30,309 nucleotides of DNA, from contig JACZST010000002.1 of assembly GCA_022574065.1 (NCBI GenBank), positions 1 through 30,309 on the forward strand, given 5' to 3'. Positions 4,510 to 30,309 of this stretch are shown here, in pieces; the stretch's first letter is position 1, and each line of letters begins with the position of its first letter. The notes under the pieces are model-generated. The model did no database searches, had not been told where the DNA came from, and saw only the letters and a program-made list of their open reading frames with translations. A program made the position numbers and the translations under genes. Origin of the DNA: Acidobacteriota bacterium (GTDB taxonomy: Bacteria; Actinomycetota; Acidimicrobiia; Spongiisociales; UBA5794).

Positions 4510-5667
4510 TCATGACCAATTCCTCACAGCATTGGCCAGGCTGCTGATTCCCTCAGTAATCGTGTTTTCGTCGGCGGCAAGCGACACTCGGACCATCCCT
4601 CTTGAGCGTGTTCCGAAAGCGTCTCCTGGTGCGACGGCCACGTGGTACTCGTCGACTAGTCGTCGGCAGAACTCGTACGAGTTCATGCCGCATGAGGCTA
4701 TGTTCGCCATGATGTAAAAGGCACCGCTAGGTTCGGTTATCAGCAGCCTTTCAGAGTCAAGAAGGCGCACAGCAAGATCGCGCCGTTGTCGATATTCCTC
4801 TTGTCTTTCGCCAACCAACTCCTGAGAGCCTCCCAGGGCAGCCTCTGCGGCCTTTTGCGACACGCTCGAAGCGCAAGCCGTGACGATCTCTTGGGTCTTC
4901 GCTAGGGTGTCCGCTAGTTCCGATGAAGCTGCCAGATACCCGAGGCGCCAGCCTGTCATTGCGTAGGTTTTTGACATGCTGAAGATGCTTATGACACGTC
5001 CGCTGTCATCGAACCGAGCCGCGCTGACGTGCTCCCCATCGAAAACAATCTCCTCGTAGCACTCATCGGACAACACATACATCTCGTTTTCTTTTGCGAT
5101 TCTGACCATCTGAGCAAGTGTTTCGGCGTCGAACACAGCGCCGGTCGGGTTGGATGGAGTGTTGATGACCAGGATCTTGGAATGCGGCGTGGTCTGGCAC
5201 AGGTGATCGAGGGCTTCGAGATCCGGCAGGAAGGCTTCCCCGGCCAGCAGCGGATAACCGACGGATACTGCCCCCATGGCGGTCGCGGCCATGGCAAAGT
5301 TCGGCCAACCAGGGTCAGGCACCAGCACCGCGTCATCGGGGTCGAGAAGGGCAAGGTATGTGAGCAGAATCGCGTTGGTAGCCCCATTCGCGACCACAAT
5401 CTGTTCGGTAGCGACCTCTAAACCATTTCTCTGCTTGAGTTTCTGGCGGATTGCCGCACGAAGGTCCGGAGTCCCTCGGTTCGGCGTGTATTTTGTATGC
5501 CCCGACTCGGCCGCCGAGGCTGCCGCCCGGATCACGTGAGGAGGTGTGTCGAAGTTCGGTTCTCCGACTTCGAGATGCAGAGTTCCGGGTGTGGCCCATG
5601 CCAGATCCATTATCTCGCGAATTCCTGACCGACGCATGGCGGACACTCCGGCAGCAAGCGATTTCAT
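4510..5667 (-). CDS. Class I/II PLP-dependent aminotransferase (AspC-like)
   Basis: LHLEVGEPNFDTP, YTPNRGTPDLR, INTPSNPTGAV, SDECY, SMSKTYAMTGWRLGY (PLP Lys) and GMVRVSL. ATGA overlap with the upstream kinase stop. Confidence 0.93.
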   Translation of the reverse strand: MKSLAAGVSAMRRSGIREIMDLAWATPGTLHLEVGEPNFDTPPHVIRAAASAAESGHTKYTPNRGTPDLRAAIRQKLKQRNGLEVATEQIVVANGATNAILLTYLALLDPDDAVLVPDPGWPNFAMAATAMGAVSVGYPLLAGEAFLPDLEALDHLCQTTPHSKILVINTPSNPTGAVFDAETLAQMVRIAKENEMYVLSDECYEEIVFDGEHVSAARFDDSGRVISIFSMSKTYAMTGWRLGYLAASSELADTLAKTQEIVTACASSVSQKAAEAALGGSQELVGERQEEYRQRRDLAVRLLDSERLLITEPSGAFYIMANIASCGMNSYEFCRRLVDEYHVAVAPGDAFGTRSRGMVRVSLAADENTITEGISSLANAVRNWS

Positions 5668-6620
5668 CGTTCCACGTCTAGAGATGTGCGACTTCTGACG
5701 GTATCGATGTCGCGAGAGTCTGCAATGAGCGTGTCTCCGTACAACCCAAGAGTCAGCGCGGCCATTGCGAGTCCACGCCGGACTCCTTCCGTGAGGTCTC
5801 CGTCCAAGAGTCCGGTGATAACTCCGGCAGCGAAGGCGTCGCCTGCCCCCACACGGTCCACAATCTCCGTCTCATATGCCGGCTCTCGCTTACAGAAACC
5901 ACTTTCGATCCATGCGGCGCCCTCCGATCCCAGAGTCATGACGACTGCGGACACCCCCAGGATGTCGATGAGCTCCGATAGGGCGGCAGACGGTTCAGAT
6001 TGCACGTTGAACACGATTGCCGCGTCGCTCCGGGTGAGGATTACCAGAGAAGCCAAACTGCACAGAGGCCGGAGAATGTCACGCGCCTTGCTTGAGGACC
6101 ACAGTTGCGACCGGTAGTTGACGTCGACCACGACCTTCACGCCCGCCGCTGCGGCGCGAGTGACTACCTCTTGTGTGAGTTCACGGCACCCATCTGAAAG
6201 CGCAGGAGTGATCCCCGAAACGAAGAGCACGGACGCCGCCTCGACGAAATCCCAGTCGATATCACGAGATGTCATCGCTGATGCCGAAGAAGCCTGTCGA
6301 TCATATATGACCTCGACAGGTCTCGGAGGAGAGTTTTGCTCGACGAAATATGCGCCGAGCCGTTCCCCGGCTACCCAAGTGATGTTAGATGCGTCCACGC
6401 CGTGCCGCCCGAGTTCTCCGGCAACTCGCCGACCGAGACTGCTGTTCGGAAGTCGTGACATCCATGCCACCGACCGCCCCATGCGCGCAAGTGCGATTGC
6501 TACGTTGAACTCTGCTCCCGCCATCGAGACGAAATACCGGTGGGCTGTCTCGATTCGCTCGCCCTTTGGCACCGACAGGCGCAACATTGCCTCTCCGAAT
6601 GTGACAACGTCGGGACTCAC
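5664..6620 (-). CDS. PfkB-family carbohydrate kinase, 2-keto-3-deoxygluconate-kinase-like
   Basis: VVTFGEAMLRLS, AGAEFNVAIALARMG, YDRQASSAS, GITPALS, VDVNYRSQLW and DRVGAGDAFAAG. Start reassigned to GTG at 6620 (GGAAGG upstream) instead of 6731. Confidence 0.9.
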   Translation of the reverse strand: MSPDVVTFGEAMLRLSVPKGERIETAHRYFVSMAGAEFNVAIALARMGRSVAWMSRLPNSSLGRRVAGELGRHGVDASNITWVAGERLGAYFVEQNSPPRPVEVIYDRQASSASAMTSRDIDWDFVEAASVLFVSGITPALSDGCRELTQEVVTRAAAAGVKVVVDVNYRSQLWSSSKARDILRPLCSLASLVILTRSDAAIVFNVQSEPSAALSELIDILGVSAVVMTLGSEGAAWIESGFCKREPAYETEIVDRVGAGDAFAAGVITGLLDGDLTEGVRRGLAMAALTLGLYGDTLIADSRDIDTVRSRTSLDVER

Positions 6621-6753
6621 GTGCGACCTTCCGCGACCCGAGAGCCGCTGGCAGCTAGGTACCATCTCAGAACCAGAAACAAGGCAGATCCTCCCCTCGA
6701 GGCCAAGAACTTGGCCTATCGGTGGCGACAAATGGAGGGATTGTCTCCTCCAC

Positions 6754-6765
6754 GGATATTATATC
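6754..6765. promoter_or_regulatory. TATAAT -10 box (minus strand) within the palindrome GATAT-T-ATATC; divergent kinase/GntR region; candidate operator
   Basis: Perfect TATAAT at 6763-6758 on the minus strand and an 11-bp palindrome at 6755-6765 in GC-rich DNA. Confidence 0.6.
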
Positions 6766-6879
6766 TTACGAGGCACCCAGGAAGAAGGGCTTCCTGAATA
6801 GGCAAGGTCTATTCGAGGGACTCGCAACCGGTAGGGCTATCATGCCTGGTGCAAATCACATGCCAAAGGTGCCGAGACC

Positions 6880-7557
6880 ATGACTGATACCGAAGTTGAT
6901 GCCCCGGTCTCGCTTGTAGACCGTGTCTACGCCGAGTTGCGTGAGGCGATCGTAGATGGGCGACGCGAGGCGGGCACGCCCCTGCGACTTCATGAACTGA
7001 CATCTGAGTTCGGTGTGTCCTTAATCCCGGTGCGCGAGGCCATTCGCAAACTCGAGGTCGAGCGACTCGTCGAGATGACTCCGAACAAAGGTGCTCGGGT
7101 GGCCGAACTTACCGTCGAGGATCTCTATGACAGCTACCGGGTGAGAGCCTCTCTCGAAGCCCAAGCGCTGCGGCTGGCATTTCCCAAGCTGTCCCCTGAG
7201 GACATCGTTGAGGCCCGCGAGATTGTCGACTCCATGGTGCAGGCTTACGACCACGATCCGAGGCTTAGCGCCGAACTGCATCGTGAGCTTCATTTCCTGA
7301 TATACGATCGAGCCGAGTCGGAGTGGCTCGGATATCTGATCAGACTTCTGTGGGCACACACCGAGCGATACCGGCGGCTCGGCACACCGGTGCCGTCGGG
7401 TGGAGATCTCGGAGGTGAACATCTTCGGATGCTTGATGCTTTGGCCGACGGCCGAATCGAGGCCGCCGTTGAAGCGCTTCAAACAGATCTAGAGGATACG
7501 GCCGATCGTGCGATGGTCCGGTTCACACGTCAACAATCACAAGACGCAGCAGGATGA
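6880..7557 (+). CDS. GntR-family transcriptional regulator (FCD domain)
   Basis: wHTH VYAELREAIVDG...LRLHELTSEFGVSLIPVREAIRKLE...PNKGARV, and FCD-type HRELHFLI...EHLRMLDAL. Confidence 0.93.
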   Translation: MTDTEVDAPVSLVDRVYAELREAIVDGRREAGTPLRLHELTSEFGVSLIPVREAIRKLEVERLVEMTPNKGARVAELTVEDLYDSYRVRASLEAQALRLAFPKLSPEDIVEAREIVDSMVQAYDHDPRLSAELHRELHFLIYDRAESEWLGYLIRLLWAHTERYRRLGTPVPSGGDLGGEHLRMLDALADGRIEAAVEALQTDLEDTADRAMVRFTRQQSQDAAG

Positions 7558-7626: not shown

Positions 7627-8379
7627 TCAGAAAGCCGCGAGCCGCCAGCCGCCGTCGATCGGTATGGTCACGCCAGTGACCACATCGAAACGAGGACCAC
7701 ATAGTTCGGCAACGATGGCTGCGACCTCGTCCCGAGTGACCAGCCGACCCAATGGTGTGGCGCGGGTGGCGCGCTCCACGAACGTCGGGTCGAACTCCGC
7801 CATGTCGTCCGCCGATTCGGCAATCTGGCCCGGAGCCACACAGTTCACGTTCACGTCCGGAGCAACCTCCACCGCGAGCCCTTCAGTGAACGTGATCAAG
7901 GCATCCTTGGCCAGGGTGTAGATCGAATGGTTCCGCACATATGCCGAACCCGCTGAAACGTTGACGACACGCCCCCAACCGAGCATCTCCGGAACCAACA
8001 ATCGGCTTGTCAGATAGGCAGCCTTCACGTTTGAAGTCCAAATACGGTCCCACTCGGATGGGTCGAGATCAACAAAGGATTCCATCGTGAAAGGCCCGGA
8101 GTTGTTGATCAGGAGATCGATAGGTCCGGGGGCCGCGGCAACGGCAGCATCGACCATGGCCCGGATCCCGCCTTCATGTGAGGTATCGCCGTAAACGGCT
8201 GCGTGGTCCCCAGCCGGGAGTCCCGCAATCAGCTCTTCGGCCTTGTCCATGGACTTGTGGTAGGTGACCAGAACATCGGCACCAGCATTGGCCAGGGCCT
8301 TGACGATGCTCGCTCCCAGGTTCCGCGAGGAAGCCGTTACCAGAGCCGTGTGGCCCTCCAAGTAGGTCTTTCCACTCAT
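7627..8379 (-). CDS. SDR-family oxidoreductase (paralogue 1)
   Basis: LVTASSRNLG, LINNSG, GRVVNVSA, YTLAK (YxxxK), VNCVAPG, TPLGR and TGVTIPIDGG. Confidence 0.9.
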   Translation of the reverse strand: MSGKTYLEGHTALVTASSRNLGASIVKALANAGADVLVTYHKSMDKAEELIAGLPAGDHAAVYGDTSHEGGIRAMVDAAVAAAPGPIDLLINNSGPFTMESFVDLDPSEWDRIWTSNVKAAYLTSRLLVPEMLGWGRVVNVSAGSAYVRNHSIYTLAKDALITFTEGLAVEVAPDVNVNCVAPGQIAESADDMAEFDPTFVERATRATPLGRLVTRDEVAAIVAELCGPRFDVVTGVTIPIDGGWRLAAF

Positions 8380-8388
8380 GGTCCCCCC

Positions 8389-9939
8389 TTATGTTTCCTT
8401 GGCCAGATCACCAACGGCCTTAACCCTGATGCGTATAGCGTTGCTAGGCAGGTACGCGAGCGGCACCTCCTCCACTTCGACGATTTCAACCGAAGGCGGG
8501 TCGGCTCCAGCCGCTATCGCCAGTTGTGATGCCTCCTCCTTAGCTTGCTCGAGTGCCGCCGGGCGGCCACTTTCAGCGATGGAATAAACCCGGTCGGTCT
8601 CCCCTCCCACCTGGGCGATCGCCGCGCCGACGGCGTTGGCCACTGAGAAGTGTTCGGGACGGATGACGACCGAGGCACATGTCAGATGGTCCTCCAAAAG
8701 CACGCCGCCGCCGCCAACAACAATCAACGGGACGGGATCTGAAGAAGTCTTCATACTGTCAACCGCGTCGGACACCGATTGCTGGATATGGCGGACGGCC
8801 CAGCGCACCAGATCACCGTCGAGACCCTTGACCAGACTCGCATCACCAATGTCGGCCATCCCCGCCGCCACAGCCACATCGGTAGCCGTCAGAGTGTCGC
8901 CACCGAACACCCGCGCCCGTGACAGTAAGTCGTAGCCAACGCTGTCAGGGCCGACTTCGATCTGGCCAGATTCACCACGCACCAGGCTGCCACCCCCGAT
9001 ACCCAACGAGAGAACATCGGGCATGCGAAAGTTGGTGCGTACTCCCCCAATCTCCACTCCGATCGATGCCTCCCTTGGGAACCCGCTGACCAGCACCCCG
9101 ATATCAGCCGTCGTCCCACCGACATCGACTACAGCTGCGGCGCTCATATCGCTTAGGAATGCCGCCCCGCGCATCGAGTTCGTAGGTCCCGATGCGAATG
9201 TAGCCACAGGGTATTGCTTGGCGTACTCAGCATTCATCAGCGTGCCGTCGTTCTGGCTGATGTATAGCGGAGCGTCGATGATCAGCTCTTCAAGCGCAGA
9301 TTGGAACGCCTCAACAATAGAAACGGCGAGTGGTCGCAGACAGGCGTTCAGAATCGTGGCGTTCTCCCGCTCGAGCAGCCCGATTCGGCCGATTTCATGC
9401 GACAAGGTGATGACCATATCGGGAACCTCGGACCGTATTACTTCGGCTGCCTCCCTTTCAAACTCGCCGTTGACTGGGGAGAACACTGACGTGATGGCCA
9501 TTGAGCGGACTCCATTGGCTGCCGTTGTTGAGGCAACCCGCTTCAGCTCATCGTGATCGAGTGCGCTGATCTCTCGACCATCGAATTCGTGACCGCCGTG
9601 GCAGATGTACCCGTGGTTGCCGATGGCCTGTCGTAGCCGATCAGGCCAGTCGACCAAAGGTGGTAGCGCCTCGGTCGCCGGTAGACCCAGACGCACGGCG
9701 GCCGTCGGCACCAGACGCCTCGTCTCGACCACAGCGTTGGTGAAGTGAGTGGTCCCAATCATGACGCTCGTCACTTCAGCGGGCAACAATGTTCCTTCGT
9801 CGACGAGAGACCGCAGTGCAGTCACGATGCCAGTGGTCACATCCGGTGTGGTCGGCGACTTGACCGTCCCCAGCACCGACCGCTCAGTCATAACCACTGC
9901 GTCGGTGTTGGTGCCGCCGACGTCGACGCCTACCCGCAC
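8389..9939 (-). CDS. Hydantoinase A/oxoprolinase-family protein
   Basis: VGVDVGGTNTDAV, VMIGTTHFTNAV, GHEFDG, IGLLERENATILNA, SQNDGTLM, SGPTNSMRGA, VDVGGTTADIG and ANAVGAA. Confidence 0.93.
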   Translation of the reverse strand: MRVGVDVGGTNTDAVVMTERSVLGTVKSPTTPDVTTGIVTALRSLVDEGTLLPAEVTSVMIGTTHFTNAVVETRRLVPTAAVRLGLPATEALPPLVDWPDRLRQAIGNHGYICHGGHEFDGREISALDHDELKRVASTTAANGVRSMAITSVFSPVNGEFEREAAEVIRSEVPDMVITLSHEIGRIGLLERENATILNACLRPLAVSIVEAFQSALEELIIDAPLYISQNDGTLMNAEYAKQYPVATFASGPTNSMRGAAFLSDMSAAAVVDVGGTTADIGVLVSGFPREASIGVEIGGVRTNFRMPDVLSLGIGGGSLVRGESGQIEVGPDSVGYDLLSRARVFGGDTLTATDVAVAAGMADIGDASLVKGLDGDLVRWAVRHIQQSVSDAVDSMKTSSDPVPLIVVGGGGVLLEDHLTCASVVIRPEHFSVANAVGAAIAQVGGETDRVYSIAESGRPAALEQAKEEASQLAIAAGADPPSVEIVEVEEVPLAYLPSNAIRIRVKAVGDLAKET

Positions 9940-9963: not shown

Positions 9964-12237
9964 TTAGCCTTCGAGGGCATCGAGGACGGCTTCGGGTGTG
10001 ATGGGGATCTTGTCGATTGGCCTGCCGATCGCGTCCGCCACCGCGTTGGCGATCGCCCCAGCCACGGGCACGATTGGCGGTTCGGCTACTCCCTTGGCGC
10101 CATAGGGCCCGGCGGAGGCCTCGTGCTGCAGGAGCACAGCCTCAACGTCGGGAACATCAACGGCCAGTGGCAGTCCGTAGGTCTCCAATGACCGCTGCAC
10201 ATACTTTCCCCCTTCGATGTCCAGCCTCTCCCACAGTGCGTACCCCAGGCCCTGAGCGACTCCACCCTGGATCTGACCTGCGACGCCCTGAGGATTGATC
10301 GTCTTGCCAACCTCTTGAGCCACGAGATATCGGAGAACGATGACGTTCCCCGTTACCGGATCTACTTCCACCTCAGCAATGTGGAGGTGGTAGGTCGGAG
10401 TGGGCCAGGTTGGCAACAGCATCCCTGTGGCGCATGTCGGATTGAAGGCAGGGATCGGCGTGGTATAAGAGCCAGTGGCAGCGATCGGGCCCTCGGTGAA
10501 CATCGCCGTCGCTGCAACCTCGGCGAGGGTCACCCGTGATGATCGATCGCCTGTCACATGGACCTCACCGTGCTCGACCACGAGATCCTCTTCCGCCGCC
10601 TCAAGCATGGTTGCCGCGGTTTTCAGCACGCTGTTCTTCACCTCGGCGGTAGCTTCGAATGCAGCCCGGCCGACCACGTGCGTTGTGCGGCTTCCCTGGG
10701 AGCCAGCGTCATACCCGGCAGTATCGGTATCGGGCATGGTAACGACGACCTGATCGGCGGACAAGCCGAGACCCTCTGCCGCGATTTGTCGTACCCCCAT
10801 CGTCACGGCGCCGGATCCATTGTCGGTCGCGGCAGTGATGACCCCCAACGTGCCATCCTCGTTGAGCTTGACCGTGGCCTGTCCTGGCGCCGGGTTGGTA
10901 AGCCACACAGCGGCTGCCATGCCCACCCCACAAAGAGGGTCCTTCCCCAACTCAGCCCACGGCGCTCGCTCTTCGAGCACTTCGAATGCTTCCCGGAGAA
11001 TCGAGGCATCACTGAGGATCTGGCCGTTGAGCATTTCATCGCCGTCGTCCATCAACGCCTGTAGCCGGTAATCACGTCTGTTCACCCCCAGCTCGTTGGC
11101 GATGTGGTCCATGTGCCTCTCGAGCGCGAACACCAGATACGTGCCGCTCACTCCTCGAAAGGCGCCCGTGGGCGCGGTGTTCGTGTAGACCGCCCGGGTG
11201 GCCACCCGGGCGGTGCCTACCCGATACACAGAACCAAAAACGAACATCGGGATGCTGGTCAGATACGGCGCATCGATGGCGTAGGCACCACTATCGAAGA
11301 CGACGTCCACATCAAGAGCCAGGATCTTTCCGGCACTGTCCACTGCAGAGCGGATCTTCACCACCGCGTTCTCGCGGCAGGGAGCGGTGAGAAGGTCCTC
11401 CTGACGCGTGTTGACCATTTTGACCGGCCGCCCGGTCCGGCGAGCCAGAAAAGCCGCGTAGGCCTCGAGACCGAGGTCGAGTTTGGCCCCGAACGCCCCG
11501 CCGATGTGATGTCCGATCACGCGCACCGCGGACTTAGGGACGCCAAGAGTCTGGGCGACGCGGTCGCGCACGTTAAAGGGGAACTGATGCGAGACATGAA
11601 TAGTGAACCGGCCAGCTTCATATGTGGCGAGGGCCATCTTGGGCTCGAGGTAGGCCTGGTACTGCCGGGGAGCGCCATAGACGTCCTCCACCACGAGATC
11701 GGCGGTCTCGAACACTGCATCCACATCGCCAGGATCCGCCACGGTCTCACTCACGATGTTGCCGTCTCGCGGCCACTCGAGATTGCCCATGGTCGCGAAG
11801 GTGGCCCAGCCCGGATGTACGAGCCTGGCACCCGGTGCCAGGGCCTGCTCCGGAGTCGCCACCGGCTCCTGCTCCTCGATCTCGAACTCGATGGCCCCGA
11901 GGGCGGCCTTGGCGATCTCTGGGGTTTCTGCCACGACCGCGGCCAACGGCTCTCCCTCGTATGTGATGTAGTCGGTGGCAAAGAGAGGCATGTCGAACAA
12001 AACGATGCCGGTGCGCTCGTTTGGCACTTCTGCAGCAGTGACAACAGCATGCACGCCGTCCATCGACACCGCCGTGCCGGTGGCAATCGACATCAGCCGG
12101 CCCGCTGCGACGGGAGAGCGGAGAAGCTGCGCATAGACCATTCCGGGCAGGGAGAAGTCGACACCGAATACGGCGGCGCCACTCACTTTGGCGTCACCGT
12201 CGCTTCTCGGAGCGCTCGTTCCAACGGTCACCGTCAT
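9964..12237 (-). CDS. Xanthine dehydrogenase-family molybdopterin-binding (large) subunit
   Basis: RSDGDAKVSG, QAYLEP, IGGAFGAK, TGAFRGVSG, QGSRTT, GQIQGGVAQGLG and GAKGVAEPP (catalytic Glu present). Confidence 0.93.
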   Translation of the reverse strand: MTVTVGTSAPRSDGDAKVSGAAVFGVDFSLPGMVYAQLLRSPVAAGRLMSIATGTAVSMDGVHAVVTAAEVPNERTGIVLFDMPLFATDYITYEGEPLAAVVAETPEIAKAALGAIEFEIEEQEPVATPEQALAPGARLVHPGWATFATMGNLEWPRDGNIVSETVADPGDVDAVFETADLVVEDVYGAPRQYQAYLEPKMALATYEAGRFTIHVSHQFPFNVRDRVAQTLGVPKSAVRVIGHHIGGAFGAKLDLGLEAYAAFLARRTGRPVKMVNTRQEDLLTAPCRENAVVKIRSAVDSAGKILALDVDVVFDSGAYAIDAPYLTSIPMFVFGSVYRVGTARVATRAVYTNTAPTGAFRGVSGTYLVFALERHMDHIANELGVNRRDYRLQALMDDGDEMLNGQILSDASILREAFEVLEERAPWAELGKDPLCGVGMAAAVWLTNPAPGQATVKLNEDGTLGVITAATDNGSGAVTMGVRQIAAEGLGLSADQVVVTMPDTDTAGYDAGSQGSRTTHVVGRAAFEATAEVKNSVLKTAATMLEAAEEDLVVEHGEVHVTGDRSSRVTLAEVAATAMFTEGPIAATGSYTTPIPAFNPTCATGMLLPTWPTPTYHLHIAEVEVDPVTGNVIVLRYLVAQEVGKTINPQGVAGQIQGGVAQGLGYALWERLDIEGGKYVQRSLETYGLPLAVDVPDVEAVLLQHEASAGPYGAKGVAEPPIVPVAGAIANAVADAIGRPIDKIPITPEAVLDALEG

Positions 12238-13567: not shown

Positions 13568-13611
13568 ATCTGTCCAACGCTCCCTTTATCCTGCCGTGTC
13601 GTCCCCTGGCC

Positions 13612-13644
13612 CTGACAAAAGGCCATGGCTATTTCATAATATGC
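13612..13644 (+). promoter_or_regulatory. Sigma70/HrdB-type promoter for DUF917 within a divergent region
   Basis: CTGACA (13612-13617), a 17-bp spacer and CATAAT (13635-13640). An overlapping TATTAT on the minus strand could serve the Xdh operon. Confidence 0.65.
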
Positions 13645-20951: not shown

Positions 20952-20963
20952 AGCCGGGTGCCA

Positions 20964-22848: not shown

Positions 22849-23738
22849 GACGCAGCCTCCCCACCGAACTCGTCGCCGATGAAGTGAAAGGCCATGACGG
22901 CGAGGACGATCATTCCGCCCGGAAACATTGATGTCCACCACTCGCCGGTGATTATGTCCTTTGCGCCTTCACCCACCATCACCCCCCACTCGGGGGTGGG
23001 TGGCTGGATTCCGACGCTGAGAAATGCCAGTCCTGCGACCGTCAGCACTGCGTATCCGGTGACCAGCGTGGCACCGACGACCGATGGCCCCAATGAGTTC
23101 GGCAGGACGTGGCGGAACGCCACACGCATTGAACTATTACCAGCCAGTCGCGCCCCGTCCACGTATTCGAGCTCGCGTTCCTTGAGCACCTGAGCGCGCG
23201 TCAGACGGATGAAGTAGGGCACGAACGCAACGGACACGGCGAGGATGACGTTGACCATGGTCTCCTCGAGTGCGGCAACGATGATCAACGCCAGCACAAA
23301 TCCAGGAAAGGCCAGGACCACGTCGGTCAAGCGCATTATGACCTCGTCGGTCGAACCGCCGAAGTAGCCGGCGATGACCCCGATGAATGATCCCACCGTC
23401 AAGGCAAGCAATGAGATCGTGATGCCGATCGTGAGATCGAGACGAGCAGCGTGAACCGAGCGCGCAAACACATCACGCCCGAACCTGTCCGTACCAAACC
23501 AGTGGGCGGCTGAGGGTGCCTGGAAGGTGTTGGCCGGGTCTGTGGACAGGGGGTCGCCCACAAGAAACGGGCCAACAATCGCCAGGCCGACAAGGAGCAC
23601 CAGCAGAGACACGCCGACGACCAGCAGCGGCTTACGCCGCACGAAGCCGAGAGACATCTTGGTGCGCGACTGCCGGTCTGGGCCCTCAAACTCCTCTGGG
23701 ACGAACTCGGGGCTGCGATCTGGGACCGTCTCGGTCAT
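22845..23738 (-). CDS. ABC transporter permease (OppC/DppC-like)
   Basis: HWFGTDRFGRDV, EYVDGARLAG, RHVLPNS, LAFLSVGIQPPTPEWG and WWTSMFPG. Confidence 0.95.
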   Translation of the reverse strand: MTETVPDRSPEFVPEEFEGPDRQSRTKMSLGFVRRKPLLVVGVSLLVLLVGLAIVGPFLVGDPLSTDPANTFQAPSAAHWFGTDRFGRDVFARSVHAARLDLTIGITISLLALTVGSFIGVIAGYFGGSTDEVIMRLTDVVLAFPGFVLALIIVAALEETMVNVILAVSVAFVPYFIRLTRAQVLKERELEYVDGARLAGNSSMRVAFRHVLPNSLGPSVVGATLVTGYAVLTVAGLAFLSVGIQPPTPEWGVMVGEGAKDIITGEWWTSMFPGGMIVLAVMAFHFIGDEFGGEAAS

Positions 23739-24760
23739 GTCGACGCTGAACCCCCCAGTCGGATGCGCGGGTCGGCGAGCGCGTAGGCGACATCAATCAC
23801 GATGTTGAGGATCACGTAGAGAATCCCCACCAAGATCACAAAGCCCTGGAGTGATTCGAGGTCACTGGTCGAGATCGCGTCGAACGCGTATCTGCCCACG
23901 CCCGGCCAGGAGAAGAGAAACTCAACGATGATATTTCCTCCCAGCATGAAACCCAACACAATGCCGATCGTGGTGATCACAGGGATCAGCGCGTTCCGAG
24001 TGCCGTCAACTAACAGCATGCGCATCCGCGGTACGCCGACGGCCTTCGCCGTGCGGATGTAATCACTGTCGAGAGCTTCGATCATCGCGACTCGCACCAT
24101 CTTCAGGATCGACGCCGCCAGCACGAAGCCCAGGGTAAACACCGGGAGCGCCAGATAGCGCACTGCCTCCCAGGCGACGGCGAACTGGCCGGAGAGCACC
24201 CCATCGATCGTGTAGAAGCCGGTGACCGTCGGAGGGGGGGCCGTTCCCACGGCGAGCCGATCCACTGGACCCGGAAACCAGCCGAGACCGAAGGCGAAAA
24301 AGAAGATCAAGAGAAGGCCCAGCCAGAACAGAGCCATCGACGACCCGATCACCGCGAAGAAACGCGCGGAGTTGTCGAGCCAGGAGCCCTGCCTCGCCGC
24401 CGCGACGATCCCAAGTGGAACCCCGATCAGAACCGCCAACAACACCGAGTAGAGGGCCAGTTCGAGCGACGCCGGAAGCCGATCCAGTAGCTCGCCGAGC
24501 ACCGGCTGGTTGGTGCGGATCGACACTCCGAGATCGCCGCGTACGAATCCGGACATGTAGTCGACGAATTGTTCGGATATCGGATCGTTGAGACCGTACT
24601 GGTCAGCGATGTACTGGATTCGCTCCTCGGTTGCATACGGGCCCGCCCGCAACGACGCTGCGTCGCCGGGAACGACCCGCACGATGAAGAACACCACTAC
24701 CACAATACCAAAGACGGTCAGAAGGCTTATTGCGAACCTCTTGGCCAGATACCGTCGCAT
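23735..24760 (-). CDS. ABC transporter permease (OppB/DppB-like)
   Basis: VRVVPGD, GDLGVS, RLPASLEL, LPVFTLG, DYIRTAKAVG, NIIVEFLFSWPGVG and DVAYALADPRIR. Start set at ATG 24760. Confidence 0.95.
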   Translation of the reverse strand: MRRYLAKRFAISLLTVFGIVVVVFFIVRVVPGDAASLRAGPYATEERIQYIADQYGLNDPISEQFVDYMSGFVRGDLGVSIRTNQPVLGELLDRLPASLELALYSVLLAVLIGVPLGIVAAARQGSWLDNSARFFAVIGSSMALFWLGLLLIFFFAFGLGWFPGPVDRLAVGTAPPPTVTGFYTIDGVLSGQFAVAWEAVRYLALPVFTLGFVLAASILKMVRVAMIEALDSDYIRTAKAVGVPRMRMLLVDGTRNALIPVITTIGIVLGFMLGGNIIVEFLFSWPGVGRYAFDAISTSDLESLQGFVILVGILYVILNIVIDVAYALADPRIRLGGSAST

Positions 24761-24774
24761 GCCCACCTTTGATA

Positions 24775-24810
24775 GCAGTGTGGCGGCGCGCTTGGGCGCC
24801 GCCACACTGC
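24775..24810. other. Perfect 15-bp stem-loop between the SBP and first permease genes (probable mRNA-stability or attenuation hairpin)
   Basis: GCAGTGTGGCGGCGC (24775-24789), a 6-nt loop and GCGCCGCCACACTGC (24796-24810). No U-tract follows on the coding strand. Confidence 0.8.
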
Positions 24811-24826
24811 CTACCTAGATTGTGTG

Positions 24827-26521
24827 TCAGTTCTTCGAGAGGTTCTCGAACCTCGGAACTTCGGTGAAGTCCTTGGTTACACCGGTGATATTCGCCCCAG
24901 TCGCCAGAATCCAATCCTCAGACCACAGGTAGATCCGATTGGCATCTTCAACCATCAACTGCTGGGCCTCGAGCCCCAGCTCGTTGCGCCGCTGCTGATC
25001 AGTCTCGAACGTCCCCTCGGCGATGATCTCGTCGAGGCGTTCGTTGCAGCCATCGGCGAAGTTGGTGAACGCGCCGCATTTGGCGAGGAAGGTCATCTGG
25101 TAGAACGGGTCGTCGCCCCATGAGAACCACTCGGTGAAGAACATCGCAAATTCGCGGCCATTCAATTTCTCACTGTACTCACCTTGGGGCAGCACATTGA
25201 TGTTCACGGTGATCCCGATCTCCCTGAGGGCATCCTGGATAAACACCGCCGCCTCCTGGTCCTGGGACCGCGCGTTCTGCACCGCCAGCTCGACCTCGAA
25301 GGGGGCGACTCCGGACTCATCCATGAGTGCCTGCGCCTTTGCCAGGTCAGTCGTGTAGATCCCGGCGGCATCACCCTGATAGGTTTCCATGGGAGACGTG
25401 ATGAGCGTTCCGGCCGTGGAAGCGAAACCAAACATCACGTTGTCCAGAAGAGCCTGGTAGGGGACCGCGTATGAGATCGCCTGACGAACCAGCTTGTTGC
25501 TGAGGTTGGGGTCGGTTGTGGCGTTCATCCCGATGTAATTGACCCGTGTCGACGGTGCGGTATACACGTTGATGTTCGGATCGTCCGCTAACTCGCTGAC
25601 CAGCCGTGGCGGCAGGCCGACGGCGACGTCGATGTCGCCGTTCTGGAGCAGCAGTGCTCTCTGCTCGGCGTCTGGGATATTGCGCACGATGATGCCACCA
25701 TTGGCAACTTGACCGGGCCAACCCGGGTTGGGATCCAGAATGACCTCACCGCGGGCCTGGTCCCAACTAGTCAGCGTGTAGGGGCCTGAGGCGTTGGCGT
25801 TGGTTGTGAAGTAGTCGAATGCGAACGGATCCTCCTCCGTCGCCTGTTCGTTAGCGAGGGACTCCTGGAGTGGGCCAAACACCTGGAACGTCATGAACCG
25901 GCCGAATAGCGCGGTTGGCTGATTCGGTGTGATCGTGAAGGTCAGTTCGTCGACCACTGTGAACGCATCCGGCGAGTCGATCGCAATAAAGGGCAGCAGC
26001 AGAGGGATATAGCTCCCCGGCGCCTCGATGCTGCGTCGGAGCATGTAAACCGCGTCCGCAGCTGTGATGGAATCACCGCTGGCAAACTTGGCGTCCGGGT
26101 TGAGCGTGAAGGTGGCTGTGCCGTCGTCCGCAACTTCGTAGGAATCCAGTAACGGGCTGGGCACGACTTCGCTCGTTCCGAGCCGGGCACCACCCTCGTC
26201 GACGTACACCTGATCGAGGAAAGGCTGATAGAGAGCTCTAGTCACTGCATAGGAGCCGGTGCTCCGGAACAGGTGCTGCTCGAGGATGTTGATGTCTGTC
26301 GACAGAGAAACGATGATCTTCTCCGATGTCGGAGCCGGCACCTCAGTGGTCGCGGGGGCATCCGGATCCGGTGCATCCGTCGCTGGCGGTGCCGTGGTAT
26401 CGGTTGCCTGTGTGGTATCCGCCGGCTCGGCATCCTCCCCACACGCGGCTGCAACGAGCGCCAAAGCCAGTAACACCGAAGCGATCAGCAGGGGTCGGAA
26501 TAGCCTATTTCCTGTCATCAT
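24827..26521 (-). CDS. ABC transporter substrate-binding lipoprotein (family 5, DppA/OppA-like)
   Basis: Signal peptide and lipobox LVAAAC, a T/A/P/D-rich linker, LNPDAKFASG, SGPYTLTSW, VRQAISYAVP and AKAQALM. Confidence 0.93.
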   Translation of the reverse strand: MMTGNRLFRPLLIASVLLALALVAAACGEDAEPADTTQATDTTAPPATDAPDPDAPATTEVPAPTSEKIIVSLSTDINILEQHLFRSTGSYAVTRALYQPFLDQVYVDEGGARLGTSEVVPSPLLDSYEVADDGTATFTLNPDAKFASGDSITAADAVYMLRRSIEAPGSYIPLLLPFIAIDSPDAFTVVDELTFTITPNQPTALFGRFMTFQVFGPLQESLANEQATEEDPFAFDYFTTNANASGPYTLTSWDQARGEVILDPNPGWPGQVANGGIIVRNIPDAEQRALLLQNGDIDVAVGLPPRLVSELADDPNINVYTAPSTRVNYIGMNATTDPNLSNKLVRQAISYAVPYQALLDNVMFGFASTAGTLITSPMETYQGDAAGIYTTDLAKAQALMDESGVAPFEVELAVQNARSQDQEAAVFIQDALREIGITVNINVLPQGEYSEKLNGREFAMFFTEWFSWGDDPFYQMTFLAKCGAFTNFADGCNERLDEIIAEGTFETDQQRRNELGLEAQQLMVEDANRIYLWSEDWILATGANITGVTKDFTEVPRFENLSKN

Positions 26522-26578: not shown

Positions 26579-26611
26579 GCATATTATAACAAGTATTAGG
26601 AAGGGGGTCGT
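26579..26611 (-). promoter_or_regulatory. Extended -10 promoter (TGnTATAAT) for the ABC operon
   Basis: Minus strand TGT-TATAAT with the hexamer at 26588-26583, about 60 bp upstream of the SBP start. The -35 position at 17-bp spacing coincides with the IS insertion point. Confidence 0.7.
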
Positions 26612-26732
26612 GGGCTTCCCCTCGAATCGTGGAGGGTTTCTGATAGCTGGTCGGATCTTCTCATAGGTCGGCACCGTGGCGCAATCGGAGCGGACTCCGC
26701 GGGCGTGAACGCCATCTGTGAGAGGCCGGTTT

Positions 26733-27638
26733 TCATGCTGCTCGTTCCTGGGCGGCTCGGTCGGCGAGAATCTGCTCGTAGGTGACGGGGGGCTGCATCT
26801 CGCAGCTGCTGTGGCGGCGCTGGTGGTTGTAGCGGTCGATGAACTCCGCTACCTCGCGGCGGGCCTGGGCTTTGGTGGCGAAATGCCGGCGTGAGAGCAG
26901 CTCCCATTCGAGGGTGGAGTTGAAACTTTCCGAGGCTGCGTTGTCCAGTGCGGATCCGACCCGGCCCATCGACTGGACCACACCCAACGCCTCACATGCT
27001 TTGGCGAAGGTGGTACCGGTGTACTCGCCTCCTTTGTCGCTGTGAAAGATCACACCGGCAACGTTGCCGCCGCGCACCGCAGCCGCCATACACAACGCGG
27101 CTTTGGCCAGCTCGGCGTCGTGGTGGGAACCAATCGCGAACCCCGGGAGCCGGCGCGAGGCCAGGTCCTTGACGGTCGCCAAATACAGTTTGCCCTCATC
27201 GGTGGGGATCTCGGTCAAGTCCCCGCACCACTTCTGGTCGATCCCCTTCGCGTTGAAGTCACGTTTAACCAGGTCAGGGACCGGCGCCGCGGCCTTATCG
27301 GGGCGGGTCAAGCCCCGTCGTTTGCGTTTCGGGGACCGGCCATAGAGGCCTTGGCGGGCCATCGACTCGGCCACCGTGTTCACCGACACCACCCACCCGT
27401 CTTCGACCAGGTCCTCGAACACCCTCGGTGACCCATAGGTCCCCGGCGTCCCCCCAGAATCGTCAAAGGATTCCTTCACCGCCTCATCGAGACGACTCCG
27501 GCGGGCCTGGCGTGGTGTCGGCGGGCGATCCCGCCACTTATAAAACGTCGAGGGCGGCACATCGAGAGCCCGGCAAGCCGCCGCGTGGGGGACACCATGG
27601 TCGGTCCTCTGGGCGGCGATAAACGATGCCACGATCAT
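26733..27638 (-). CDS. IS3 OrfB transposase (DDE)
   Basis: [38 protein letters not shown] and YNHQRRHS, with D-D-E intact. ATG 27638 overlaps the orfA stop (ATGA). Confidence 0.93.
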
Positions 27639-27925
27639 CGTGTCGCCTCTTTTACCCAAAGGACCACTGAACGCTTGAGGACATCACGCTCCATTCGCAG
27701 CTCGGCGTTCTCGCTCTCGAGGAACACCAGACGAGCCCGCTCGTCGACGGTGAGGCCCTCAGCCTCGCCACGCTCGATGCGGTCCCTCTTCAACCAGTTC
27801 CCCAGGGTGCCGGCGTTGATTCCCAAATCCCGAGCCACCACCGCTATCGGCTTGTTGGTCTCCCGGACAATCCGGACAGCTCCCTCACGAAACTCCGGGT
27901 CATACTTTCTACGTAACTCTGACAT
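27635..27925 (-). CDS. IS3 OrfA
   Basis: [18 protein letters not shown]...[15 protein letters not shown]...[14 protein letters not shown], with GAGGAG ribosome-binding site. Confidence 0.93.
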
Positions 27926-28128
27926 GACATCTCCTCATAGTGGAAGTCTCCACACTTTGAGGGGATACCCGGTCGAGTGAACATCGCTCGACGGAGGCTC
28001 CCGGAACTCGTGGCCCTACCTTCCGATCCGCTCCGGCACGCCTGCAGCCACAAATCGATTCTCCCCACGGAGGATGCCTCTCGCCTATATGATCGCCACG
28101 AGCCGATGCCACCCCGCTCCCCTTCCCT

Positions 28129-28755
28129 GTGACAGAACTCGATGCCTCCCTTATTCGGATGCCCCTGATTGGGATCCTCCGCGGCTGTCCGGTGCAATAC
28201 GTTAATGCCATGGCGACCGCCGCAGAGGCCGCCGGGCTCACTGCTCTGGAAGTCACGCTCGACTCAGCGGACCCCTTCGGCGCAATTCGGTCCCTGGCCC
28301 AGAACCACCCGAACATGTCGGTTGGCGCCGGGACGGTGCGGTCGGTGCGTGAGGTCGCTGACGCGGTGGAGGCAGGAGCACGGTTCATAGTCTCACCCCA
28401 CTTCGACCCAAAGGTGGTCGCCGCGGCCTTAGCGGCTGGTGTGGTTTCTGTGCCAGGCGCCGCGACCCCGACCGAGGTGTTGCGAGCAGCAGACAGCGGA
28501 GCAGAACTGGTGAAACTGTTCCCCGCTCGCGAACTAGGAGGTCCCGAATTCGTGAAGGCCATCCGCAGGCCTCTCGGAGAACCCGCACTCGTGCCAACCG
28601 GGGGAGTCGATGTCTCGAACGCCGCTGCCTTCCTGAAGGCGGGCTCGACTGCCCTGGGCGTCGGGGGCGCTGTATTCCCGCAGGCTGCCCTCGATTCTGG
28701 TGACACCGCCGAGGTTGAGCATCGATGCCGCATCCTCATCTCGGCGATCCAGTGA
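28129..28755 (+). CDS. eda: KDPG/KHG aldolase
   Basis: LIGILRG, LEVTL, VGAGTV, GARFIVSP, PGAATPTE, VKLFPA (Schiff-base Lys) and PTGGV. Confidence 0.92.
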   Translation: MTELDASLIRMPLIGILRGCPVQYVNAMATAAEAAGLTALEVTLDSADPFGAIRSLAQNHPNMSVGAGTVRSVREVADAVEAGARFIVSPHFDPKVVAAALAAGVVSVPGAATPTEVLRAADSGAELVKLFPARELGGPEFVKAIRRPLGEPALVPTGGVDVSNAAAFLKAGSTALGVGGAVFPQAALDSGDTAEVEHRCRILISAIQ

Positions 28756-28756
28756 G

Positions 28757-29590
28757 TTATGACCTCGTCACGCTCCGAGGGAGGTCCGAACGTGTCGATG
28801 GAGCACCGACCGACAGCCCCCCTCCGACGATGCGATCGATGGCGGCGACACGGGCCGAACTTCGGCCAAGCGACGCAGTGAGCGTGTCGAGGGCGTCTCC
28901 CCGATCCTGGTGGGTGAGATGAGTGCACTGTTCGTCGCCGGGTTCGGGGTTGGCGAGGTAGAGGGTGTTGGCCTGGCGGCCTCGGCTCATCGCGACGTAG
29001 GCCCATTCCCGGTCGGCGCTTCCGCCAATGATCGTGAAGGTGCGGCCGGTGGTGACGCCTTGGGCTTTGTGGCCGGTGAGGGCGTAGCCATGGTCGACGT
29101 GGTCTTGGTCGAGGTACCAGGCGGGCAGCTCCCGGATCTCGGGGTCACGGTACTGCGGGGCCCCGGCACAGCCGATGGCGAGCACGCCTTGCTCGTTGGC
29201 GGCGCGGGCTGTAGGACCACCGACGTCGAAGTCACAGGACGTGATGATGATGTCGGCGCCGGCCTCGATAGCCTCGATAGCCGCCGACTCGAGCAGCGCG
29301 AAGTCGGTCTTGTGGTCAATGACTATGATCTCGATCTGCCTGCCCAGGATCCCGCCAGCCGCGTTGATCTCGGCCACCGCCAGCTCCACGCCCTGCAGCA
29401 CTGGAATGTCGAAGAGCGACATGAAGCCGGTCTGGCCGGACACCACCCCCAGCACGAGCGGCTCCTGGTCGCCGCCCCCTTGCGTCGTAGTGGTGGTCGT
29501 GTCTGCAGCGTCGTTGTCTCCGCAGGCCGCGGTCACCAACGCCAGCGCGAGCACGGCACCGAGCACCTTCGTCTGGGCCTATATGCTCAT
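28757..29590 (-). pseudogene. Chimeric ORF: LivK-type ABC substrate-binding lipoprotein N-terminus fused in frame to the C-terminus of a MobF/TraA-type relaxase-helicase
   Basis: The N-terminal part has lipobox LVTAAC, GVELAVAEINAAGGILGRQIEIIVID and IITSCDFDVG. After ...GAPQY (about 29150) it switches to ELPAWYLDQDHVDHGYALTGHKAQGVT...REWAYVAMSRGR (SF1 helicase motifs V and VI). ATG 29590 follows GGAGG. Confidence 0.8.
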
Positions 29591-29592
29591 GT

Positions 29593-30309
29593 TTATTCCT
29601 CCAATAGTGTTTCGGCCGCCTTGGCGGTGATCGCCTCAAGGACAGCCTCGGGTGTGATGGGAATAGTGTCGAAGGGCGCCCCGATCGCTTCACTGACCGC
29701 GTTGGCGATCACAGCTGCAGGGAGCAGAACGGGAGCCTCGCCGACGCCCTTTGCGCCGAAGGGGCCATCGGGATCTGGATGCTCCAAAGGATAGAACTCC
29801 ACCCGGGGTATGTCGACGGCTAGTGGGAGTCGATAACTCTCCAACGACCGTTCCTGATAACGGCCGTCCTCCCCGATGCGAAGACTCTCGTACAGCGTAT
29901 AGCCGATCCCCTGAGTGACGCCGCCAGCGACCTGACCATAGGTCCCCGACGGGCTGATCACCTTGCCGACCTCCTGGGCCACGATGTACCTCGTCACCGC
30001 GACCCGGCCAGTCACAGGATCAACCGCGACCTCCGCCAGATGGACGTGGTAGGTGGGCGTGGGGAACGAAGGGAACATGAGGCCGGTAGCACATCCCGGG
30101 TTGAAATCGGGGAAAGGGGTCACGAACGAGCCGGTTCCCTGGATAGGCCCAATCGTCCACGTTGCCGCCGCCGCCACCTCGGCGAGGGACAGGCCACTGT
30201 CGGGGGAACCAATCACTGCAACCCTCCCGTCGGCGACGACGATGTCCTCTGCGGCGGCCTCCAGGAGGTCGGCAGCAACACTCTTGATCTTCTCGATCAC
30301 CTCATCGGC
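29593..30309 (-). CDS. Second xanthine dehydrogenase-family Mo-binding subunit, C-terminal part (5' end outside the window)
   Basis: HLAEVAVDPVTG, GQVAGGVTQGIG, GAKGVGEAP and IPITPEAVL. The frame is open to the window edge. Confidence 0.92.
   Translation of the reverse strand, partial: ADEVIEKIKSVAADLLEAAAEDIVVADGRVAVIGSPDSGLSLAEVAAAATWTIGPIQGTGSFVTPFPDFNPGCATGLMFPSFPTPTYHVHLAEVAVDPVTGRVAVTRYIVAQEVGKVISPSGTYGQVAGGVTQGIGYTLYESLRIGEDGRYQERSLESYRLPLAVDIPRVEFYPLEHPDPDGPFGAKGVGEAPVLLPAAVIANAVSEAIGAPFDTIPITPEAVLEAITAKAAETLLEE

Follow-up and report, generated by a model that had tools for sequence, protein, structure and literature searches.

The 30,309-nucleotide stretch of DNA analysed here (the window) is the entire contig C70 of a metagenome-assembled genome (MAG; 1.72 Mb, 60% complete), and the nearest relatives of its proteins carry an Acidimicrobiia label. 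Our data show that the gene block in it is not a chance mosaic but a real, conserved cluster of marine and sediment Acidimicrobiia, composed of two modules that also occur apart. Module A comprises an importer, two F420-type luciferase-like oxidoreductases (LLMs), a metal-dependent M24B hydrolase, a ThrC-fold pyridoxal phosphate (PLP) enzyme, a short-chain dehydrogenase/reductase (SDR) and SnoaL proteins. In Module B a DUF917 gene diverges from the genes of a three-subunit Xdh-family molybdenum (Mo) enzyme, a HyuA-like protein and an SDR, after which come a regulator, a PfkB kinase resembling those for 2-keto-3-deoxygluconate (KDG), the aldolase Eda and an aminotransferase. The cluster probably joins the two enzyme sets to import and degrade a small polar nitrogen-containing ring compound, and we rate it as a heterocycle catabolic cluster, presumably initiated by a Mo-hydroxylase, with unusual partners: F420 LLMs, a ThrC-fold lyase, an M24B enzyme and a HyuA-DUF917 pair.

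A conserved cluster of two separable modules

Genes were called by Pfam and NCBIfam profile scans of the window proteins, and these recovered every gene type listed in a preliminary description of this DNA. For the 'hydantoinase' of that list this holds for the HyuA (ATPase) half, while the HyuB half was not found in the window. The operons appear tightly coupled, as described there: many gene junctions in the block share a 4-base overlap, a pattern that would fit translational coupling. For comparison, the ThrC-like protein was used as an anchor in a scan of 185,579 species genomes, which returned 80 genome loci; about 12 metagenome contigs complete the comparative coverage, and all window proteins were compared with the 80 genome loci in a tblastn matrix.

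Metagenome contigs whose ThrC-like relatives are 75, 68, 62 and 60% identical to the anchor have an identical gene order, running from the importer through SnoaL, two LLMs, M24, the PLP enzyme, SDR, SnoaL and DUF917 to the Xdh subunits. Synteny across both modules was seen in L010, L011/L012, L015, L017, L018, L019, L020, L024, L027, L028, L029, L030, L033, L062 and L068, that is, in at least 15 Acidimicrobiia-type contigs with protein identities of 36-86%; the relative in L018 is 75-86% identical to the window. According to the tblastn matrix, the full arrangement is present in 11 of the 80 genome loci, mostly from Acidimicrobiia and including open-ocean and sediment bins. Such repetition of one gene order among numerous independent contigs puts the association far outside what chance would give. 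The preliminary description had treated the transporter/LLM/M24/ThrC part and the Xdh/HyuA/DUF917 part as one assembly, and the co-occurrence check, now run, finds the two conserved together in Acidimicrobiia-type contigs.

The smaller genes keep their places as well. SDR1 (7627-8379, minus strand; PF13561), the final gene of the Xdh operon, is kept after HyuA at 54-76% identity in L010, L024, L027, L033, L068, L100 and L101, and SDR2 (15247-16005, minus; PF13561) is found at 58-78% identity in L010, L011, L015, L017, L018, L020 and L062. The first SnoaL/NTF2-like gene (SnoaL1; 14781-15182, minus; PF12680) adjoins DUF917 in the extended loci at 50-84% identity, and the second (SnoaL2; 20571-20951, plus, with an ATG at 20571; PF12680, 9e-21) occupies the same position in L010, L011, L015, L017 and L018.

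At the same time the cluster is rare. Of 300 other genomes drawn from the class, 2 contained the anchor, as did 2 of 400 drawn from the phylum, and 16 genomes of the family itself gave no match, so the cluster must be an accessory trait. A DNA search of a plasmid collection with positions 13600-26521 gave no match. The term 'island' used earlier is apt only if it means a rare accessory cluster; the insertion sequence (IS) elements are later insertions and not its vehicle. Three loci (L024, L027 and L028) are labelled as Poseidoniales archaeon or Gammaproteobacteria, yet they hold the Acidimicrobiia-type extended cluster at 57-70% identity; these odd labels are probably due to binning error, or else to lateral transfer.

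The Mo enzyme and probable sugar-acid end of Module B

The Xdh operon lies on the minus strand. It begins with the FAD subunit (12713-13567; PF00941 and PF03450; 284 aa), followed by the 2x[2Fe-2S] subunit with 8 Cys (12234-12737; PF00111 and PF01799) and the molybdopterin subunit (9964-12237; PF01315, PF02738 and PF20256). The set has the three-subunit domain architecture of xanthine dehydrogenase, with molybdenum cofactor, 2x[2Fe-2S] and FAD domains on adjacent genes, and falls short of all three xanthine dehydrogenase equivalogs (XdhA, 426.6 versus a cut-off of 780; XdhC, 182.2 versus 217; XdhB, 188.7 versus 310). The Mo subunit carries the hydroxylase-type motifs GGAFGAK and GAKGVAEPP. Aerobic CO dehydrogenase (form I) can be ruled out, as the AYxCSFR motif of its Cu loop is absent and TIGR02416 gives 267.8 versus 991. 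The best PDB match of the Mo subunit is the alpha subunit of 4-hydroxybenzoyl-CoA reductase (1.5e-87), followed among other matches by Kdh (3.4e-65), Qor (1.7e-61) and nicotinate dehydrogenase (1.2e-59). The models of 4-hydroxybenzoyl-CoA reductase are missed by a wide distance (TIGR03194, 454.3 versus 994.55; TIGR03195, 104.4 versus 404.55). That reductase has an extra [4Fe-4S] insertion in its FAD subunit, and no Cys-rich or extra Fe-S insert is seen in the 284 aa of the FAD subunit here.

At the end of the window the contig breaks off within another Xdh-family Mo subunit gene (29593-30309, minus; PF20256), of which the C-terminal 238 aa remain; this copy shares 60% identity with the first. 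Such doubling has parallels: L027 (2825-6412) and L033 (176-6426) hold, upstream of LLM2, a second paralogous DUF917-HyuA set with 41-61% identity to that of the window, accompanied by all three Xdh subunits in L033 and by a match to the FAD subunit only in L027. Elsewhere in the MAG, contigs C2 and C127 contain at least 4 more Xdh-family Mo subunit genes at 32-40% identity, which may belong to another heterocycle cluster; C127 also encodes a second ThrC paralogue with an STGNAAA loop.

The putative sugar-acid end of Module B is split between the two ends of the block. On the left, a class I/II aminotransferase (4510-5667, minus; PF00155, 5e-68), below all NCBIfam equivalog cut-offs, closes the module, and its gene shares a 4-base overlap with that of the PfkB kinase (5664-6731, minus; PF00294, 7.5e-51). 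The latter resembles kinases of KDG and of 2-keto-3-deoxygalactonate (KDGal), and its best NCBIfam model, NF041332, is missed at 293.5 bits versus 440. A GntR/FCD regulator (6880-7557, plus; PF00392 and PF07729) diverges from the kinase operon; its orthologues, at 42-50% identity, were found in L029, L027 and L068, and an IclR regulator takes its position in L017, L100 and L101. Eda, a KDPG/KHG aldolase (28129-28755, plus; PF01081), passes TIGR01182 (175.9 versus 156.05).

Module B stands alone in a Streptosporangiaceae-labelled contig and in one other metagenome contig (L100, L101). Its Xdh, HyuA, DUF917 and SDR proteins are 54-65% identical to those of the window, the kinase, aldolase and aminotransferase 37-46%, and in both contigs this last trio accompanies the Xdh set. 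A non-orthologous aminotransferase-aldolase-PfkB trio adjoins DUF917 in L017, without Xdh. Since the trio recurs with the module even as non-orthologous copies, it belongs functionally with Module B, and its recurrence favours a product resembling a sugar acid at the end of the route.

A predicted HyuA-DUF917 enzyme

The HyuA-like ATPase (8389-9939, minus; PF05378 Hydant_A_N and PF01968 Hydantoinase_A) has as its best PDB match the N-terminal part of N-methylhydantoinase (7e-26) and also matches 5-oxoprolinase (7e-22) and the alpha subunit of caprolactamase, in each case only the ATPase half, and it is shorter than the HyuA subunits that it matches (516 versus ∼690 aa). HyuB was not found in the window, in the related loci examined (including L010, L100 and L101) or in the MAG, which is 60% complete; in L103/L104 a single, unrelated-looking Hydantoinase_B gene lies downstream of HyuA and DUF917, at a distance of ∼2.5 kb. 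HyuA and DUF917 neighbour each other in L027 and L033, and in L103, a Chloroflexi-labelled contig, the two neighbouring genes overlap. HyuA-like proteins are abundant in metagenomes: all 8000 of the 8000 scored candidates pass an E value of 1e-40.

The DUF917 gene (13714-14784, plus) diverges from the Xdh operon, starts with GTG at 13714 behind an upstream GGAGG and encodes a protein that resembles S-Me-THD (PF06032, 2e-58; PF20906, 1e-65). Its model has a predicted local distance difference test (pLDDT) score of 85.5 and matches the structural-genomics entry 2o3i (Z 35.5; next Z 4.7). In a fold search of ∼48,000 PDB representatives and in a Foldseek search, 2o3i was the only relative returned, and no HyuB-like chain was among the matches listed. 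Models of thiohydantoin and S-methyl-thiohydantoin desulfurases are missed (73.8 versus 450 and 51.5 versus 440).

The complex of the HyuA-like and DUF917 proteins was predicted from alignments of 25 sequences each in three runs. The scores were 0.83, 0.81 and 0.83, the best control giving 0.26; of 80 solved complexes 58 attain that mark, as do 2 of 110 mismatched pairs. The pLDDT of the partner did not fall below 89, and the runs agreed in 84% or more of their contacts. The prediction supports binding of the two proteins to each other. Such a score is unlikely to be a memory of a solved complex, because 2o3i is the one relative of DUF917 with a solved structure.

DUF917 proteins have been called uncharacterised and likely hydantoinases, and they are reported to be enriched, together with peptide-type ATP-binding cassette (ABC) importers and racemases, in synthase-less cyclodipeptide-oxidase clusters (10.1101/2023.09.25.559410). 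A row of genes in L103 (3359-14649) and L104 resembles those clusters: it encodes an Asp/Glu/hydantoin racemase, an ABC importer with a family 5 solute-binding protein (SBP5), a HyuA-like protein (67% identical), two DUF917 proteins and a fused double nitroreductase-type protein.

Module A, its importers and the link to F420

All core enzymes of Module A are encoded on the minus strand: the ThrC-fold enzyme (16049-17287; PF00291), the prolidase-like M24B metallohydrolase (17284-18429; PF00557), LLM1 (18426-19460, start GTG at 19460), which is a Rv2161c-type F420-dependent LLM of TIGR03619, and LLM2 (19499-20488), an F420-type LLM resembling Mer (PDB match 1z69). This four-enzyme core is present in more than 40 genomes, from Actinomycetota to Rokubacteria, with Jiangella, Dactylosporangium, Micromonospora, Cellulomonas, Gordonia, Nakamurella, Rokubacteria/Methylomirabilota and a few Firmicutes among its carriers; Jiangella muralis DSM 45357, Cellulomonas sp. 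RIT-PI-Y and Gordonia sp. DT219 are cultured examples. In the 59 genome loci with enough flank, M24 accompanies the anchor in 51, LLM1 in 46 and an LLM2-like gene in 45, and LLM1 and M24 are tightly adjacent in 43. ThrC-like orthologues of several Mycobacterium species at 55-58% identity have no LLM1 or M24 match nearby (L035-L037, L039, L041, L055, L063 and L064), and in P0093 a ThrC-like protein of 56% identity sits in an unrelated, housekeeping-like context, so that orthology appears to fade near that level.

The importer of the window follows upstream on the minus strand, with two Opp/Dpp-type ABC ATPases (20964-22941; PF00005 and PF08352), two Opp/Dpp-type permeases (22845-24805; PF00528, PF12911 and PF19300) and a family 5 solute-binding lipoprotein (24827-26521; PF00496, 1e-73). 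The importer of Module A is exchangeable. Orthologues of the Dpp-like permeases (52-62% identity) adjoin the core in Micromonospora, Dactylosporangium, Cellulomonas and Pseudactinotalea; among 31 core-only loci (∼22 of them actinobacterial), 16 have a CodB-like NCS1 permease and 18 a divergent PucR-type regulator; and a LivK-type ABC system serves the core in Rokubacteria. Swapping among nucleobase-, peptide- and amino-acid-type importers argues for a small polar substrate and not for a large conjugate. The three-part conjugated substrate put forward in the preliminary description is not borne out, since the modules exist alone and the core is also served by the CodB-like NCS1 permease or the LivK-type ABC system. 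No result favours any of the candidates named there (peptidyl-nucleosides, cofactors, glycated amino acids). SBP5 gives little guidance on the ligand: it reached no equivalog, and its best solved relative is AapF at only 1e-32, the ligand of which is not documented in the literature searched.

Several lines point to F420 as the cofactor of the core. LLM1, 47-78% identical in core loci, passes TIGR03619 (201.3 bits versus 166.9), and LLM2 matches Mer (PDB 1z69, 1.4e-40), missing NF002619 at 166.9 versus 276. The MAG encodes CofH (483.9 bits) and CofE (245.7 bits), both above their cut-offs, and a cofD-like gene adjoining cofE reaches 248.8 bits, just under 257.45. In Firmicutes, L077 (8134-13698) and L067 (385-5884) hold in one direction genes for a ThrC-like protein, a Mer-like LLM, an energy-coupling factor (ECF) S-component, CofE and a Cof-type HAD phosphatase; in L077 this series is preceded by M24 and a YheO-type regulator, and in L067 Fno comes after the LLM. 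The set looks like a cassette for uptake and retailoring of F420 on the sole visible F420 user. The LLM-fold F420 enzymes Mer, Fgd, Adf and LmbY are hydride transferases (PMC8518648). Given the TIGR03619 pass, the Mer match, the cof genes of the MAG and the CofE/Fno neighbours in Firmicutes, both LLMs are most likely F420 hydride transferases and not oxygenases. A role as FMN/O2 monooxygenases was judged unlikely, since Firmicutes of anaerobe type also carry the core, with CofE next to it (and Fno too in L067).

In the M24 protein, alignment to 1pv9/1wy2 shows all five metal-ligand positions (Asp, Asp, His, Glu, Glu) conserved, these being the positions that we take to bind metal in the Pyrococcus furiosus prolidase structure. 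The enzyme is nearer to prolidases (7e-35) than to DoeA (3.5e-11) in the PDB search, and misses PepQ_Arch (125.6 versus 630). The ThrC-like enzyme has an N-terminal Cys4 motif and the SxKDR motif of the Schiff-base lysine, which is invariant as SYKDR in 15 orthologues, and misses both TIGR00260 (127.3 versus 167.1) and PRK08197 (204.6 versus 303). Its TTGNHG loop differs from the STGNTS loop of the MAG's own ThrC, and the dehydratase-type paralogue of the MAG has SSGNHG; GNHG is the loop of serine/threonine dehydratases and racemases. As the loop resembles that of dehydratases and not that of threonine synthase, we infer that the ThrC-like enzyme is a lyase or dehydratase rather than a phospho-lyase.

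A proposed route and its alternatives

Our reading of the block, which we hold tentatively and at slightly less than even confidence, is that of an accessory catabolic supercluster combining lactam formation by a Mo-hydroxylase, ATP-driven ring opening, deamination, F420 redox chemistry and an end of the Entner-Doudoroff type. For the substrate we envisage a small, polar N-heterocycle whose carbon skeleton is sugar-like; both its nature and every chemical step are inferred. In Module B, the Mo enzyme would oxidise a C-H adjoining the ring nitrogen to give a lactam, and the HyuA-DUF917 pair, with DUF917 in the place of HyuB, would act as a two-protein enzyme that opens the ring at the expense of ATP. 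The aminotransferase would then take the amino group off the amino acid so formed, an SDR would set the oxidation state (alcohol or ketone), the PfkB kinase would phosphorylate a 2-keto-3-deoxy sugar acid, and Eda would cleave the product to pyruvate and triose phosphate. In Module A, the M24B enzyme might hydrolyse an amide, either dipeptide-like or cyclic, the ThrC-fold PLP enzyme might deaminate or dehydrate the hydroxy- or amino-acid released, and the F420H2-dependent LLMs might reduce the resulting imine or enone.

A number of points weigh against this reading. All its steps rest on genes and predictions, and no enzyme reached a substrate-specific equivalog cut-off, only the general models TIGR03619 (LLM1) and TIGR01182 (Eda) being passed; the aminotransferase is of the general class I type. 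As the modules occur apart, they may act on two different, merely related substrates. Xdh-family enzymes oxidise aldehydes too, which makes lactam formation a guess, and the best structural relative of the Mo subunit, 4-hydroxybenzoyl-CoA reductase, is a reductive dehydroxylase. M24B enzymes usually cut Xaa-Pro peptides, and the M24 protein may be an ordinary dipeptidase. L011 and L015 have no HyuA-like gene in the stretch read, both ending just past the DUF917 and SDR genes. Finally, kinase, aldolase and aminotransferase genes are all missing from L010, the nearest relative with the full cluster, both over ∼10 kb upstream of its importer and over the 3.3 kb from SDR1 to the contig end, so the Entner-Doudoroff-type end is either dispensable or encoded elsewhere. 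The polyol or sugar-acid arm envisaged in the preliminary description is favoured by the recurrence of the three genes with the Xdh set and weakened by their absence from both sides in L010.

This last observation is also one of the arguments for a simpler view, possible though rather unlikely in our estimate, in which two or three functionally separate operons with different substrates came to lie side by side by accretion of accessory genes, for instance an Opp-type system for peptides or amino-acid derivatives and a Mo-hydroxylase system for a heterocycle or aldehyde with an Entner-Doudoroff-type sugar-acid branch. Each module also occurs by itself, the core in more than 40 genomes and Module B in L100 and L101; IS elements abound in the window, and regulators vary by locus (GntR, IclR, PucR). 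However, the two modules have remained fused despite rearrangements and divergence to as little as 36-60% identity, DUF917 and SnoaL1 accompany Module A even in loci that lack Xdh (L017, L019), and a 10-base element recurs at the three main promoters, an argument of modest weight as the element includes a TATAAT box. We regard as unlikely, too, a system for breakdown of a diketopiperazine, a hydantoin-like compound or an oxidised pyrazinone. Such a ring would enter by the Dpp-type importer, Xdh would add oxo groups to an aromatic pyrazine or imidazole, and the LLMs would reduce the dehydro ring with F420H2; HyuA-DUF917 would open the first amide, M24B as a dipeptidase the second, and the PLP enzymes would deaminate the amino acids. 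The company that DUF917 keeps with peptide importers and racemases in cyclodipeptide-oxidase clusters (10.1101/2023.09.25.559410) speaks for this, as do the L103 row (racemase, SBP5 ABC importer, HyuA, two DUF917 and the nitroreductase-type fusion), a nitroreductase after SDR1 in L010 and the complete prolidase-type metal site of M24, and a symmetric ring would suit the two Xdh, the two LLMs and the two HyuA-DUF917 sets of L027 and L033. It leaves the kinase/Eda/aminotransferase trio unexplained unless the side chains are sugar-like, though, while the widespread core runs without DUF917, HyuA and Xdh, and with a CodB-like permease, and neither a cyclodipeptide oxidase nor a racemase is present in the window.

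That the cluster belongs to a characterised pathway (breakdown of purine/pyrimidine, nicotinate/picolinate, ectoine/hydroxyectoine, creatinine or homarine) seems to us improbable. The family likenesses are real: there are Xdh-type subunits, HyuA and an M24 distantly like DoeA (3.5e-11, PDB), the PLP enzyme, reductase and M24 mirror EutB, EutC and EutD, and the core may come with a CodB-like permease. Equivalogs are nevertheless widely missed (XdhA as given above; DoeA, 64.8 versus 575 and, in a second model, 53.7 versus 613; EutB, 51.4 versus 413; thrC, 127.3 versus 167.1), and no uricase, allantoinase, HyuB, DoeB-type deacetylase, creatininase or ring dioxygenase was found in the window; on these scores and missing partner genes the ectoine, creatinine, purine and nicotinate readings were rejected. 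The homABCDER enzymes are of other families. The hom operon for homarine encodes HomA (an FAD reductase), HomB (an oxygenase), a peptidase and an aldehyde dehydrogenase-like enzyme (PMC13236597), and as none of these types is in the window, it was rejected as well. Breakdown or salvage of a pterin, flavin or deazaflavin cofactor with an amino-acid tail, one of the substrates first thought of, is very improbable. LLM2 resembles Mer, which acts on a pterin, Xdh-family enzymes hydroxylate pterins, both SDRs match pteridine reductase models, and the Firmicute core adjoins CofE, an ECF S-component and, in L067, Fno. Yet the CofE and Fno neighbours are more simply seen as cofactor supply for an F420-dependent enzyme, the generic SDR matches lack specificity and score far under their cut-offs, the window has neither a pterin deaminase nor enzymes of the GTP cyclohydrolase-like or riboflavin type, and the kinase and Eda end is not expected from a pterin.

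Within the proposed route a more specific version can be formulated, which we consider quite unlikely as it stands. Here an F420/Mo route would open a sugar-derived N-heterocycle, either a polyhydroxyalkyl-pyrazine or -imidazole from amino sugars or an iminosugar lactam, to amino-deoxy-aldonic acids; the ThrC-fold lyase or the aminotransferase would convert these to KDG, which the kinase and Eda would then split. In this version the HyuA-DUF917 pair would found a novel class of lactam hydrolases driven by ATP, and the core would be a widespread nitrogen-scavenging unit.

Relation to known systems

No published pathway or paper matching this gene combination was found in our literature search, no characterised pathway could be mapped onto it, and, with no substrate-specific equivalog cut-off reached, the earlier view of a catabolic cluster outside described pathways holds. 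Its parts nevertheless recall several known systems. The HyuA/HyuB hydrolases (N-methylhydantoinase, 5-oxoprolinase, caprolactamase) share with the predicted HyuA-DUF917 enzyme both Hydantoinase_A domains and the two-protein composition, but the window has no HyuB, and the predicted partner, DUF917, has a fold unlike anything solved but 2o3i. With the Mo-hydroxylase pathways for N-heterocycles (Eubacterium barkeri nicotinate, nicotine Ndh/Kdh, Qor) the cluster has in common a three-subunit Mo/FeS/FAD enzyme with hydroxylase-type motifs. The proposed order of reactions is also that of the nicotinate route of E. barkeri, in which the ring is hydroxylated and reduced, after which the lactam is hydrolysed. 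Here, in contrast, the reductases would be F420 LLMs, the putative opener is HyuA-DUF917, the end is formed by kinase and Eda in place of the known downstream steps, and no equivalog of those pathways was reached.

The apparent logic of Module A resembles that of EutB/EutC/EutD with different families. As in the breakdown of hydroxyectoine and ectoine (EutB, EutC, EutD/DoeA), one operon combines an M24 hydrolase with a reductase and with a PLP enzyme of fold type II whose loop reads GNHG, a scheme common to the Eut and Doe systems. Unlike there, the M24 lies closer to prolidases, the fold of the PLP enzyme is that of ThrC and not of IlvA, and the reductases are F420 LLMs; the profile scans of the window found no family of the DoeB/EutE deacetylase. 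Likeness to the semi-phosphorylative Entner-Doudoroff pathway consists in the kinase, which is nearest to a haloarchaeal KDG/KDGal kinase model, and in Eda, which passes TIGR01182; the kinase and aldolase genes are translationally coupled in L101. What differs is the coupling to an aminotransferase and Xdh/HyuA/DUF917 and not to sugar dehydrogenases or dehydratases. Cyclodipeptide-oxidase clusters and thiohydantoin desulfurases share PF06032 and PF20906 and peptide-type ABC importers with the block, which differs from them in missing the desulfurase models and in having neither oxidase nor racemase in the window.

The four-gene core is spread over several phyla without an assigned function and is accompanied in Firmicutes by its own F420 supply genes. 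If confirmed, it would add to the small number of catabolic roles that F420 has beyond methanogens and mycobacteria. A confirmed HyuA-DUF917 enzyme would give DUF917 a function and hydantoinase A a second type of partner. The link between Xdh and kinase/Eda suggests a possible new path from an N-heterocycle to central carbon metabolism in marine and sediment Acidimicrobiia, which are mostly uncultured and whose substrates are poorly known.

Insertion elements, remnants and a promoter element

The block is bordered and interrupted by IS elements. An IS3-family element with an rve + HTH_21 transposase (26579-27975), which is not part of the pathway, separates Eda from the SBP5 operon. In L018 Eda, 75% identical to that of the window, is directly divergent from SBP5, and both sides of the IS3 copy align to the unbroken Eda-SBP5 spacer of that relative; the element therefore arrived after the cluster had formed. 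A composite transposon is ruled out, as the flanking IS remnants are of different families and relatives carry the cluster without IS.

IS debris (122-3439) forms the left border of the block. Among it, in an open reading frame at 1419-2399, lie the N-terminal ∼110 residues of a DHDPS-family protein (2058-2399, plus). L011/L012 have a complete DHDPS-family gene within the cluster, nearest to 5-dehydro-4-deoxyglucarate dehydratase (171.6 bits versus 278), and the window may have lost such a gene through IS activity. On the right, a gene remnant at 28757-29566 (minus), not a pathway gene, combines a LivK-type N-terminus (PF13458) with a weak UvrD_C_2 match; LivK-type binding proteins also accompany the core in Rokubacteria.

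The 10-base element mentioned above, YATAATATSC, occurs at 6754-6763, 13635-13644 and 26579-26588, that is, at the three main promoters. These 3 matches compare with 0.14 expected, and none of 100 shuffles reached 3. The element includes the TATAAT box and may thus be a promoter element rather than an operator of GntR. Its copy at 26579 abuts the end of IS3, and the counterpart in L018 matches at 7 of the 10 positions.

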